A stretch of 64,000 nt of DNA, taken from NCBI RefSeq assembly GCF_044324785.1, contig NZ_CP172127.1. One strand, 5' to 3'. Below, piece by piece: positions 3,892 through 11,234 of the stretch. A program made the translations under genes and the position numbers. Every line of letters begins with the position of its first letter. Within the stretch, counting starts at the first letter, position 1. The notes beneath the pieces are model-generated. The model did not search any database, was not told the DNA's origin, and saw only the letters and a program-made list of their open reading frames with translations. This DNA is from Escherichia coli. Lineage in GTDB: Bacteria; Pseudomonadota; Gammaproteobacteria; Enterobacterales; Enterobacteriaceae.

Positions 3892-4228
3892 CATGACTCC
3901 TTGCTCATCGCATGAAGACTCCGAGAGTGAACCCCGTTAGAAAGGGTCACACGCATGCCCCAATACAAAATTATTTGCTCGCCTCTATCGTTGCCATTTC
4001 ATCAAAAGAGGAAAAGACAATGATAAAAAAGTTACAAATATGTTAATGAATAAACCAAATTGATCCCGTAATTATATTACGCCGCAAAATCCTTACAATA
4101 AACAGGTTTTTATTGAGCAAATTTGCATTTTTCGACAGTGATCAATTTATAGCGAAATTGTCACGACATCACCAATTTGATCTACGACAATTTATCGTGT
4201 TTTGCAGATTTTTTTCAAGAATTAAAAA

Positions 4229-4242
4229 TTGATTTATATCAA
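4229..4242 (-). promoter_or_regulatory. Perfect FNR-type box TTGAT-N4-ATCAA in the cydAB upstream regulatory region
   Basis: TTGATTTATATCAA read directly in the AT-rich region upstream of cydA; cydAB is a known FNR/ArcA-controlled operon. Confidence 0.5.
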
Positions 4243-4696
4243 AATCAGCCAAATATGTTAATTATGTATAAACCATAGATCATTGGTAATTTTATTGTTA
4301 ATTTATTGTGAAATATTTATGCAACACAATTATTACAATGAAAAAGTATAGATAAAAAACCAGTGTTTTATTTAACAGAACCGCCCTATCCACTTTTTAT
4401 AATACCAATTGATTAGAGTAGCCAATTTGTTGCTATTTTACATAACATATTTTTATCAAAGTTAATTGATTGTTGCCTTTATGAGCACCGACCGTAAGCC
4501 CGTTATGTTATTGTTTCATTAGTAATAATCACTTAAATGTATCGATAAAACAGGTATGACTTAGCGGGAGTGATTGTTTCTGAGTGAACAGAGGACACTT
4601 TCGCCTGATAAATGAAAAATGAGCGATTTTTGCAAGTTAGTTTTTCTATAGCCGAGTACGCTCAGCGCCTCGCTTGATTACAATGAGGTTGCTGCT

Positions 4697-5641
4697 ATGA
4701 GTCCTGATAATATCGGTTCGGCTGTCAATCGCTTCTTAGGTTGGCCATCTAATGATCCTCTAAAAACAGATAACGAATCAATGACATCACCCGTGACTGT
4801 GCAGGTAATAAAGATGATTGCCGCCATCCTTGACCCACATCGGATAGTCGTTGGAATCGATACACTTTATACAACGCAGCGCGAAACATTTACCTCAGAG
4901 AGTCAACAGCTCATTGAATCAGCATTGCAAACACTTCATGTGATGAATTTAAATAACCTGGAAACAAATCTCGATGAGGAAGGTCACTATCTGGCTTTTG
5001 GATATAACGTTGACACTCCTGACAGAATAACCGTTTCTGCTTATAATGAAAAAAAGCCTGGCTGCTATGGTCAATGTCTTTTAATACAGGATGACGAAAC
5101 AGACTTATTTAACCTGATAAAAGTTAAAATTTTTGAAACCAGGCATAATTATGTCGCTCAATTGATGAGCGATCCGGAATTTATGTTCAAATTTAGTTAT
5201 AGCGCTCAACAAAATAGATTAGAACCTCATCTTCTGGTTCCCACTTATTTCCCTCTAAAAACAAACGAACCGGTTACGCAAGAGGATGTACTGTTACTTT
5301 ATCGTTTCTTTAAAATGGATGGTGATTTTAATATATTAACATCAGATGAATACATGAGTATCATGACACCTCTGATGAAGTGTGAGCGCAGCATCCACGA
5401 CCACAACAGGTATGTGACGGGCAAAGATACCCTTCTTCTGGACTATCCTCCTTCTGGTAACCAGATATATTTCCATATTTTTCCTGACGAATCAGCAACA
5501 CTAGTCCTTTATTTTTCAAACAATGACATTGAATGTTTCGTCTTTGAAAGAGATATTCCGAGCCAGTATCGCTTTTTCAAAATGTTTACCAATCTGGCAC
5601 TGGTTATTGATCAGTTAACCGATGCCAATCAAATACTTTAA
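4697..5641 (+). CDS. Hypothetical protein, 314 aa, AT-rich, no recognisable domain
   Basis: Long ORF with GAGG upstream of the ATG; markedly AT-rich versus flanking core genes; no signal peptide, P-loop or other motif I recognise. Confidence 0.6.
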   Translation: MSPDNIGSAVNRFLGWPSNDPLKTDNESMTSPVTVQVIKMIAAILDPHRIVVGIDTLYTTQRETFTSESQQLIESALQTLHVMNLNNLETNLDEEGHYLAFGYNVDTPDRITVSAYNEKKPGCYGQCLLIQDDETDLFNLIKVKIFETRHNYVAQLMSDPEFMFKFSYSAQQNRLEPHLLVPTYFPLKTNEPVTQEDVLLLYRFFKMDGDFNILTSDEYMSIMTPLMKCERSIHDHNRYVTGKDTLLLDYPPSGNQIYFHIFPDESATLVLYFSNNDIECFVFERDIPSQYRFFKMFTNLALVIDQLTDANQIL

Positions 5642-5721
5642 TTTTTATATATTCCCTGTGGCAAATATTGCTAAACAATGCCCGGGGATTAATTTTTATT
5701 ACTCACGGAAAGATTTAAATA

Positions 5722-6144
5722 ATGATCCCATCTCAAATCTCTTTCAACACCCTTCCTGTCAATGCAACATACGCTTCAGAGACAACAGTTGACACACAAA
5801 AATTCTCTGACATCCTCTACTCAGCGGGGTGTTCCCTAAAGGATCTGGCTTATCTGAGCAGATGTCTGGCATCAATACATCCGACTATCGCCAAAAACAT
5901 TTATGAAACAGAAAATCTCAGCGATCAAAAATTACTGCATATTGATTGCCGTAGTACAAATGAAATCAAGATAAATATCTTTTTTGGTCAACAACGAGAA
6001 GGATTAATTGAAATTAATTCTGACACTGTCATTTTTCCGATATTGTCTTCATTAATTGACTCCGCCATTTCTAAATTTCAACACCAAATCCCCGTTAACG
6101 GTTCAGTAAATCCTGACCTATTGTATGAGGATTATACTGATTAA
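5722..6144 (+). CDS. Hypothetical protein, 140 aa, AT-rich, no recognisable domain
   Basis: ORF 80 bp downstream of 4697-5641 on the same strand with the same AT-rich composition; Ser/Thr-rich N-terminus (MIPSQISFNTLPVNATYASETTV...). Confidence 0.5.
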   Translation: MIPSQISFNTLPVNATYASETTVDTQKFSDILYSAGCSLKDLAYLSRCLASIHPTIAKNIYETENLSDQKLLHIDCRSTNEIKINIFFGQQREGLIEINSDTVIFPILSSLIDSAISKFQHQIPVNGSVNPDLLYEDYTD

Positions 6145-6691
6145 ATCCCTCCTGTCGCGAAAAATGGCCTGCGTTATTGCCAGACGTAATAAAACTTTTG
6201 ATTAACGTTACTCGTACTGGTAGCACCTTCATGTACTTTTCTTTTTTACGAAAAATCAAAAGAGCTAACAAAGGTCATAATTCGCATGAATCATTAATTA
6301 TTTGTTATTTTCAACATTATTTTTACATTAAGCAGAGATGAATTGCAGTGAAATTCGACTTAACTTTTATGAAATGCATTTACTCATGGCTAAAGCCACG
6401 TCACAAAAATGCAAATTAGAAGTTGATCACAATTATCTCAATACATCAAATCAAGTTAATTTTAAAAATTTAACATTCATGACATTAGTTGACATAACAC
6501 ACTGAATTAAAATGATAATTTGAAAACACACTTTAAACAATCATTTCCCGAAAGACATTTTGAAAATAGATCAATTGCAACATTACGGTCAGATAAAGAC
6601 ACTCCTGTGATATTAAACCTGTGCCGTTATGAGCGGCCATAAATACGACGTGTGTAACTTATTTTACTCTCTGTCTTACAAAGGATTACCC

Positions 6692-7141
6692 ATGAAGAAA
6701 GCAACACTTGTGATTGGCGTTATTGGCGCGGACTGCCATGCAGTAGGCAATAAAGTTCTGGACCGAGTTTTTAGCAACCATGACTTCAGAGTTATTAATC
6801 TGGGCGTAATGGTCAGCCAGGACGAATATATTGATGCTGCCATTGAAACTGGTGCTGACGCGATTGTCGTCTCCTCTATCTATGGGCATGGCGATATCGA
6901 TTGTCTGGGCATGCGCGAACGCTGCATCGAGCGTGGGCTGGGTAACATCCTGCTCTATGTGGGCGGTAACCTGGTGGTCGGAAAACATGACTTCGCTGAC
7001 GTGGAAACCAAGTTCAAAGAGATGGGATTTGATCGCGTCTTTTCCCCAAGTCATGACTTAGAAGATGTTTGTCAGCTGATGGCCCACGATATCAACCAAC
7101 GTCATGACGTTGATACTCGCATTCTTGAAGAGGCAATCTGA
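6692..7141 (+). CDS. glmS: Glutamate mutase (methylaspartate mutase) S subunit, B12-binding
   Basis: [24 protein letters not shown]... carries the cobalamin-binding DxHxxG-type motif and resembles clostridial GlmS/MutS; start at the internal Met with an AGGA RBS rather than the ORF-track start at 6629. Symbol follows clostridial nomenclature, not glucosamine-6-P synthase. Confidence 0.9.
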
Positions 7142-9993: not shown

Positions 9994-11234
9994 TGAAAAT
10001 AAAACAGGCTCTGTTCACCGCTGGCTACTCCTCATTCTATTTCGATGACCAGCAGGCGATAAAAAACGGAGCGGGTCATGACGGCTTTTTTTATACCGGG
10101 GAGCCAGTAACACAGGGGTTTAACGCCGTACGTCAGGCCGGGGAGTGCGTATCGGTACAGTTGATTCTGGAAAACGGCGCGGTCGCTGTAGGTGACTGTG
10201 CTGCCGTACAGTATTCCGGGGCAGGTGGTCGCGATCCACTGTTCCTCGCAGAGCACTTTATTCCGTTCCTCAACGACCATATTAAGCCATTACTGGTAGG
10301 CCGCGATGTAGATGCTTTCCTGCCGAATGCCCGTTTCTTCGACAAATTGCGTATTGACGGCAACTTGCTACATACCGCCGTACGCTACGGATTATCACAG
10401 GCGCTGCTTGATGCTACCGCGCTGGCAACCGGCCGTCTGAAAACTGAAGTGGTCTGTGATGAATGGCAGTTGCCACGCGTGGCGGAATCCATTCCATTAT
10501 TTGGTCAGAGCGGGGACGATCGATATATCGCCGTCGATAAGATGATCCTTAAGGGCATCGACGTGCTGCCCCATGCACTGATTAATAACGTCGAAGAGAA
10601 ACTGGGCTTTAAAGGTGAAAAACTGCGCGAATATGTCCGCTGGCTGTCGGATCGTATTCTGAGCAAGCGCACCAGCGCACGCTACCACCCTACCCTGCAC
10701 ATCGATGTATACGGCACTATCGGTCTGATCTTCGATATGGATCCGCTTCGCTGTGCGCAATACATCGCCAGCCTGGAAAAAGAAGCGCAAGGCCTGCCGC
10801 TCTACATTGAAGGGCCGGTCGATGCCGGTAACAAGACCGATCAAATTCGCCTGCTGACCGCGATTACCAAAGAGCTGACGCGCCTCGGTTCCGGCGTGAA
10901 AATTGTGGCCGATGAATGGTGTAACACCTACCAGGATATTGTTGATTTCACTGATGCCGCCAGTTGCCACATGGTGCAAATCAAAACCCCGGATCTGGGC
11001 AGTATTCACAACATCGTCGATGCAGTTCTTTATTGCAACAGCCACAGCATGGAAGCGTACCAGGGCGGCACCTGCAATGAAACTGATGTCAGTGCCCGCA
11101 CCTGTGTCCACGTCGCCCTTGCCGCTCGCCCCATGCGTATGCTGGTAAAGCCAGGGATGGGCTTTGACGAAGGCCTCGATATCGTCTTCAACGAAATGAA
11201 TCGTACTATCGCGCTGTTGCAGGCTAAGGATTAA
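9993..11234 (+). CDS. mal: 3-Methylaspartate ammonia-lyase (beta-methylaspartase)
   Basis: 413 aa enolase-superfamily-like ORF, 1-nt overlap with the glmE stop; size and context match methylaspartate ammonia-lyase. Confidence 0.88.
   Translation: MKIKQALFTAGYSSFYFDDQQAIKNGAGHDGFFYTGEPVTQGFNAVRQAGECVSVQLILENGAVAVGDCAAVQYSGAGGRDPLFLAEHFIPFLNDHIKPLLVGRDVDAFLPNARFFDKLRIDGNLLHTAVRYGLSQALLDATALATGRLKTEVVCDEWQLPRVAESIPLFGQSGDDRYIAVDKMILKGIDVLPHALINNVEEKLGFKGEKLREYVRWLSDRILSKRTSARYHPTLHIDVYGTIGLIFDMDPLRCAQYIASLEKEAQGLPLYIEGPVDAGNKTDQIRLLTAITKELTRLGSGVKIVADEWCNTYQDIVDFTDAASCHMVQIKTPDLGSIHNIVDAVLYCNSHSMEAYQGGTCNETDVSARTCVHVALAARPMRMLVKPGMGFDEGLDIVFNEMNRTIALLQAKD

Follow-up and report, generated by a model that had tools for sequence, protein, structure and literature searches.

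Taxonomically restricted genes, or ORFans, lying in AT-rich accessory DNA that is silenced by H-NS are a concept that reportedly goes back to Daubin and Ochman in 2004. Orphan genes have been treated in enterohaemorrhagic Escherichia coli (EHEC; PMC4765031), and the glm (methylaspartate) cluster, published with the order glmS-mutL-glmE-mal-DUF1446-gltP-fumD-cobA-LTTR (LTTR, LysR-type transcriptional regulator), has been reported in Klebsiella, Citrobacter, Enterobacter, Salmonella, Yersinia and Morganella (Kronen and Berg 2015, PMC4682846). Class I chaperones of type III secretion systems (T3SS) with the CesT/SycE/SicP fold and the alpha-beta sandwiches of frataxin/CyaY were also listed among the closest known systems. 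Compared with these here are two consecutive open reading frames (ORFs), A and B, which occupy positions 4697–6144 of a 64,000-nucleotide stretch of E. coli DNA (assembly GCF_044324785.1, contig NZ_CP172127.1; the whole stretch is called the window), 100% identical to strain N3 and 99.3% identical to enteroaggregative E. coli (EAEC) 042. A and B are genuine protein-coding genes and true orphans, taxonomically restricted to Escherichia. They are read here, with moderate confidence, as silenced, weakly selected and vertically inherited genes whose products may have a binding role, and not as a toxin-antidote or defence pair.

Two protein-coding orphan genes

ORF A (4697–5641, plus strand, 314 aa) starts with ATG, preceded 8 nt upstream by a GAGG Shine-Dalgarno sequence, and ORF B (5722–6144, plus strand, 140 aa, conserved core at about residues 41–117) is preceded by a weak Shine-Dalgarno sequence; these are exactly the two plus-strand ORFs proposed by a preceding sequence-only reading. 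They are separated by an 80-bp spacer (5642–5721, plus strand) in which a terminator scan found no terminator; A and B may be co-transcribed. The genes are named ECs0767 (A) and ECs0766 (B) in O157 Sakai, where both are annotated merely as "hypothetical protein", and EC042_RS03945 (A) and EC042_RS03940 (B) in EAEC 042; in a collection of 15 billion sequences all source names were "hypothetical" or "uncharacterized". A and B have guanine-cytosine (GC) contents of 38.3% and 37.1% (36% and 34% at third codon positions) versus 52.8% for cydA, 52.4% for glmE and 52–55% for the flanks, and the AT-richness noticed earlier relative to both the flanking core genes and the glutamate mutase cluster is therefore real. 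GC content stays at 26–38% throughout 4000–6600 and drops to 26–28% in the flanking spacers. Chance in AT-rich DNA does not explain the length of the two frames, since the longest open frame in 2000 dinucleotide-preserving shuffles of 4268–6628 had at most 198 codons (314 codons reached in 0/2000) and a second-longest frame of 140 codons was likewise reached in 0/2000.

Both reading frames are under selection. A has exactly 314 codons and no indel in 11/11 distinct E. coli alleles and in an E. albertii cluster of 131 sequences (77% nucleotide identity); over the same divergence the 805-nt spacer between cydA and A has accumulated 13–17 gaps, in contrast to none over the 945 nt of A. B is intact in 9/11 sampled E. 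coli alleles. The ratio of nonsynonymous to synonymous substitution rates (dN/dS) was 0.36–0.43 for A (p=3e-6) and 0.27–0.49 for B, and neutrality was rejected in all tests (binomial p 3e-6 to 7e-4), between species as well as within E. coli, where A carries 36 synonymous and 65 nonsynonymous polymorphic sites and B 20 and 24. In a neutral simulation with random substitution at the observed density, ORF A stayed open in 0.07% of runs. The sequence-only reading would have been refuted had the ORFs been untranscribed, untranslated pseudogenes; with dN/dS below 1 and lengths beyond those of the shuffles they are genuine coding genes, though near-silent. The constraint is real yet far weaker than that on the neighbouring genes: between E. 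coli and E. albertii dN was 0.22 for A and 0.32 for B, versus 0.002 for cydAB and 0.013–0.058 for the glm genes, so that the two proteins change 4–100 times faster than their neighbours at a dS (0.53–0.65) comparable to that of the glm genes (0.68–1.07).

The start of A behaves differently from the rest of the gene. In codons 1–40 (4697–4816) dS is 0.16 versus 0.56–0.67 elsewhere and the local dN/dS is 1.36, on just 3.8 synonymous changes; a minus-strand antisense ORF (4678–4827) that overlaps the start of A encodes 49 aa in the window and 89 aa in E. albertii. An overlapping constraint, regulatory or at the RNA level, might account for the low dS.

Homology searches were performed with the full-length proteins, the domains of A and divergent E. 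albertii homologs as family and profile queries. No match at E <=0.1 was obtained in Pfam, NCBIfam, PADLOC, PHROGs or the PDB (sequence and profile). Two word-indexed searches of 5.8 billion proteins found no relatives outside Escherichia/Shigella, and when 1.84 billion cluster representatives were scanned exhaustively with a HMMER profile, only fragments of the same protein were returned. Relatives are limited to E. coli/Shigella, E. albertii and one further Escherichia lineage; when each GTDB species was represented by one genome and scanned, they were found in E. albertii (68% identity) and in Escherichia sp. MOD1-EC7003 (50%, across a broken gene). No copies of A or B were present in GenBank phages, IMG/VR contigs or genuine plasmids.

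Several apparent exceptions were rejected. Two contigs of metagenome-assembled genomes, also returned by the scan of GTDB species and labelled "Collinsella" and "Citrobacter" (L010 and L011, 97–98% identity) were attributed to binning contamination by E. coli, three PLSDB "plasmids" (CP088669.1, NZ_CP141089.1 and NZ_CP134663.1; 0.73–4.9 Mb) are mislabelled chromosomal records, and two seemingly distant homologs of B (P0046 and P0047) are frameshifted copies out of poor assemblies. Descent of B from a domain of A by duplication was likewise rejected (BLASTP E 2.2, hhalign probability 2%).

Both products are acidic (pI 4.6; 4.65 for B), hydrophilic and predicted to be soluble, and neither has a transmembrane segment or a signal peptide (maximum Kyte-Doolittle hydropathy, KD19, 1.25 and 1.33). 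The N-terminus of B is modestly rich in Ser/Thr (8/28 residues versus 18% overall), in keeping with what had been noticed before, and 16 of the first 36 residues of A are S, T, N or P, a matter of composition only. AlphaFold2 with shallow alignments gave mixed alpha/beta models with predicted local distance difference test (pLDDT) scores of 43.5 (A) and 41.7 (B); in A only residues ~190–290 reach a pLDDT of 54–84. The predicted secondary structure of A comprises a disordered N-terminus of ~36 residues, a middle alpha-beta3-alpha portion and a C-terminal alpha2-beta5-alpha domain, and that of B is alpha3-beta3-alpha. Foldseek against AFDB50 retrieved just the A/B family's own, equally poor models. 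The best-modelled portion of A appears to resemble a two-layer alpha/beta sandwich, a resemblance that is indicative only and implies no family membership. The sequence-only reading had recognised no function for the pair and had named clear homology of both proteins to characterised families as one finding that would overturn it; profile hidden Markov model and Foldseek searches found no such homology, and the statement that both proteins are free of recognisable motifs, transmembrane segments and signal peptides was upheld by the hydropathy values and the negative family searches.

Linkage, silence and loss, and the readings they allow

The A-B pair was found in 1135/5426 complete E. coli genomes (21%), including O157:H7, O145 and 042, always as a single chromosomal copy. 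As glmE is present in 1131 genomes and positions 4000–6700 are contiguous in 1134, the pair and the glm island behave as a single haplotype block within E. coli. In E. albertii the loci L014–L016 share the order cydA, A, B homolog, glm island, and the arrangement is thus older than the split of E. coli and E. albertii; in two others (L002 and L012) A is present, B is reduced to a remnant of 44 nt and an unrelated 258-aa gene takes the position of the glm island, a form that represents a secondary deletion. The survey of co-occurrence proposed in the sequence-only reading thus gave 1135 versus 1131 genomes, with the linkage already present in the common ancestor of E. coli and E. albertii. Repeat and tRNA searches found no bounding repeats, tRNA, integrase or insertion sequence (IS) elements around the pair. 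Since the glm cluster occurs in other genera without homologs of A or B, which co-occur with glmSE/mal inside Escherichia only, the two genes are an Escherichia-specific addition of separate origin. A separate horizontal origin had been proposed before, and this part of the proposal agrees with the lack of A/B homologs outside Escherichia and the wide distribution of the glm cluster; in practice, however, the pair and the glm genes travel as one block.

The 258-aa gene of the glm-less E. albertii form (L002, 11786–12562; L012, 11862–12206) lies between the B remnant and sucD and is truncated in the E. albertii type strain. Its product has a signal-peptide-like N-terminus, is beta-rich and may be an outer-membrane protein.

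In published RNA-seq data of EHEC strain EDL933, A and B reached 0–12 reads per kilobase per million (RPKM) across 11 conditions (PMC4048457 Table S4), which were mostly aerobic and of laboratory, plant or faecal type. The tract is AT-rich (GC 26–38%) and transcriptionally repressed, as described for H-NS-silenced xenogeneic DNA, and its near-silence would fit H-NS-type silencing. Neither gene is mentioned in the supplements of the Sakai RIBOseq, EDL933 translatome, bovine-content transcriptome and Pch/H-NS chromatin immunoprecipitation (ChIP) papers.

Independent inactivation has occurred at least five times in B and at least three times in A. B is frameshifted at codon 35 in the O145 strain RM12275-C1 and at codon 123 in strain VE-T9; in E. 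albertii L014 an in-frame stop at codon 37 and early termination leave a core ORF of 90 codons, in E. albertii L002/L012 only the remnant is left, in MOD1-EC7003 a deletion is accompanied by an enterobacterial repetitive intergenic consensus (ERIC) element, in the chicken isolate L022 an IS element has inserted, and in Shigella dysenteriae the gene is truncated. A is frameshifted in the E. albertii type strain and truncated in S. dysenteriae; an ERIC element splits it in MOD1-EC7003, and an IS element cuts it in L022. An intact A stands beside a B that is frameshifted (L017, L018), interrupted by a nonsense codon (L014) or reduced to a remnant (L002).

Two of these loci were inspected further. 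MOD1-EC7003 carries two ERIC elements, also called intergenic repeat units (L013, 10349–10470 and ~11090–11220), one splitting A and the other located where B is deleted; the first matches the ERIC1R primer perfectly and ERIC2 with one mismatch, and the glm genes downstream are intact. The Brazilian chicken isolate L022 (NZ_CP182371.1, 4317034–4322201) has ISVsa5/IS4-family insertions, by which A is left without its N-terminus and the 3' end of B is disrupted.

The favoured reading of these data is as follows. A and B would have arrived at the sucD-cydA junction as AT-rich DNA of foreign origin before the divergence of E. coli and E. albertii and would since have been passed on vertically in one block with the glutamate-fermentation (glm/mal/fumD) island. 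Their products are predicted to be cytoplasmic alpha/beta proteins, acidic and soluble, in which no catalytic signature is detectable, and the genes would be held almost silent, presumably through xenogeneic silencing by H-NS. They are dispensable and under weak purifying selection, B being lost repeatedly and A kept more faithfully, and would be used solely in a niche-specific state, plausibly the anaerobic gut condition that induces the glm operon; an obligate toxin-antidote or defence pair they would not be. Their likeliest action may be non-enzymatic protein binding of an adaptor or chaperone-like kind, a mechanism that we infer with low confidence because the products appear acidic, soluble, alpha/beta, devoid of a catalytic signature, tolerant of amino-acid change and dispensable. 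Three points weigh against this reading: a dN/dS of ~0.4 combined with repeated decay would also suit genes heading for loss, the mostly aerobic RNA-seq set may have missed an induced state, and the locus has no record of H-NS binding in the accessible datasets (text and supplements of the Sakai H-NS/Pch/Ler ChIP-chip paper hold no data on it).

A rival view holds that A and B are decaying relics of one acquisition, with no present function, which persist because they are silenced and harmless. Near-silence in all 11 conditions, a dN/dS far above that of the neighbours and the independent losses of both genes speak for it, but a dN/dS significantly below 1 both between species and in E. coli polymorphism, the unchanged 314 codons of A in the E. 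coli alleles and in the large E. albertii cluster and the rarity with which the frame survives neutral simulation do not, and we consider it unlikely.

Linkage to the glm island suggests another role, that of Escherichia-specific accessory or regulatory factors of this island, read through into the glm operon; a helper in cofactor handling or assembly of the B12-dependent glutamate mutase or of the Fe-S mesaconase FumD would be an example. Tight linkage is, however, expected anyway for vertically inherited neighbours. The cluster functions as a unit in many genera from which A and B are missing (PMC4682846), both genes are destroyed in MOD1-EC7003 beside intact glm genes, some E. albertii strains retain A after loss of the island, and GC content and evolutionary rates are sharply unlike those of the glm genes; such a role is therefore improbable. 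A further proposal, in which A, possibly with B, founds a new Escherichia-specific family that acts in host or niche interaction and is expressed only in the anaerobic gut after relief from H-NS, would make the products either a substrate or adaptor of E. coli type III secretion system 2 (ETT2) or of the enterocyte effacement locus (LEE) with chaperone-like alpha/beta sandwiches, or a frataxin-like Fe-S/B12 helper for the glm enzymes. It is speculative and about equally doubtful.

The sequence-only reading had suggested an effector and its chaperone, that is, a T3SS substrate (LEE or ETT2) with its partner. B fits the description of a small acidic class I chaperone (140 aa, pI 4.65), a nonspecific criterion, and the proposal draws on size and charge without positive homology: B matched no profile of CesT, SycE or another chaperone and shows no alpha-beta3-alpha-beta2-alpha dimer fold, and A has no homology to known effectors and lies between cydA and glmS, not in a prophage, effector locus or T3SS island. 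This role for the pair is quite unlikely.

A toxin-immunity, toxin-antitoxin or anti-phage defence module, to which a large and then a small gene of no known function on one strand in AT-rich accessory DNA might point, is very improbable, as A remains intact where B is frameshifted (O145 and VE-T9), stopped by a nonsense codon (L014) or reduced to a remnant (L002), no PADLOC, Pfam or PHROGs match exists, the copy is single, chromosomal, vertically inherited and free of mobile-element features, and the flanking genes serve respiration and fermentation. Loss of B beside an intact A in several independent lineages makes B hardly an essential antidote to A, although a silent A might tolerate the loss, and no known toxin, antitoxin, immunity or trafficking domain was found in Pfam, NCBIfam, PADLOC or PDB sequences. 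The toxin/immunity suggestion of the sequence-only reading is accordingly disfavoured, A being intact where B is frameshifted, truncated or deleted. Its defence-module suggestion finds no counterpart in a locus with 0 PADLOC families, cydAB and glm as neighbours in place of a defence island, and no copy in phages, plasmids or viral contigs, and nothing shows A and B acting as the previously undescribed system for which they had been the best candidate.

Flanking control regions

The minus strand carries ybgC-ybgE-cydX-cydB-cydA; after a spacer of 800 bp the plus strand carries A, B and glmS-glmL-glmE-mal-AtuA-DUF4387-symporter-class I fumarase (FumD)-cobO, and a LysR regulator and sucD come next. 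The pair is thus divergent from cydAB, as had been claimed, with the 800-bp spacer and a perfect FNR consensus (4229–4242) in between. The cydAB control region (3895–4267, minus strand) is context shared with K-12 and lies outside the A-B module; its perfect FNR box TTGATTTATATCAA is at the same offset as TTGATAAATATCAA in K-12. Homology to K-12 MG1655, which has mngR-mngAB at this position, stops abruptly at 4267, 373 bp upstream of cydA. Up to this point the region is ~79–84% identical to K-12 (L008, 9086–9458) with 13 gaps, versus 98.8% identity for the cydA coding sequence. This divergence and the abrupt end of homology reveal two diverged haplotypes of the cydAB upstream region, of which one goes with mngRAB and the other with A-B-glm; in the latter the far-upstream part of the K-12 cydAB regulatory region has been replaced.

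The AT-rich, island-specific leader between this breakpoint and A (4268–4696, plus strand; GC 26–38%) is absent from K-12 and is the probable promoter region of ORF A. Promoter-like hexamers were no more frequent in it than expected from shuffles, and no promoter was therefore assigned; the entire spacer between cydA and A is ~85% identical to E. albertii. On the other side of the pair, an AT-rich spacer including the upstream region of the glm operon (6145–6691, plus strand; GC 28–34%) has no Rfam match, and 6286–6700 is 81% identical to E. albertii L014. It contains a 52-nt block, TTTAAACAATCATTTCCCGAAAGACATTTTGAAAATAGATCAATTGCAACAT (6532–6583, ~110 nt upstream of glmS), which is 100% identical in E. 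coli and E. albertii, the longest such run, and is a putative operator or promoter for the glm operon, where the LysR regulator might bind. Scans for Rfam families, terminators, promoters, repeats and tRNAs gave nothing informative.

Two annotations of the island deserve comment. The program-made ORF for glmS starts at ATG 6629 (170 aa) versus 6692 in RefSeq (149 aa), and the shorter form is supported by E. albertii L014, which reads ACG at the upstream ATG. In Sakai (L009, 16934–18618) ECs_0759 (DUF4387) is labelled "acyl-CoA synthetase", which looks like a misannotation, and ECs_0760 (AtuA family) is labelled "3-methylaspartate ammonia-lyase"; that the DUF1446/AtuA-type gene downstream of mal bears the ammonia-lyase label has already been flagged as unexplained (Kronen and Berg, PMC4682846).

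Comparison with known systems

A and B belong to the "hypothetical" genes of O157:H7, O145, EAEC 042, many phylogroup D/E/F lineages of extraintestinal pathogenic E. coli and E. albertii; in these important pathogens they are genuinely uncharacterised, though as orphan genes they are of an ordinary type. Their locus adjoins the oxygen-regulated cydAB control region, now seen as two haplotypes linked to different islands (mngRAB and A-B-glm), and a glutamate-fermentation island. A function for A and B, if established, would define a new protein family; the evidence instead speaks for what commonly becomes of orphan DNA that is silenced and weakly selected, and the label "novel toxin or defence system" has been removed as unsupported.

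With the glm cluster the pair shares position, strand and inheritance, the last in every E. coli that carries the pair. It differs in lying outside the published cluster definition and in being absent from other genera that carry the cluster, in GC content (37% versus 52%) and dN (4–17 times higher; 0.22–0.32 versus 0.013–0.058), and in that A and B can be destroyed while the cluster stays intact. The searched supplements contain orphan and translatome lists, and neither gene is in them. A and B resemble the ORFans of E. coli in low GC content, lack of homologs beyond the genus, fast protein change under relaxed but real constraint, very low expression and frequent loss. Unlike typical ORFans A is long (314 aa) and the pair has no phage relative or context, and unlike recent ORFans the A-B pair is old, dating from before the split of E. 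coli and E. albertii; the locus is chiefly a well-dated example of the persistence and decay of orphan genes.

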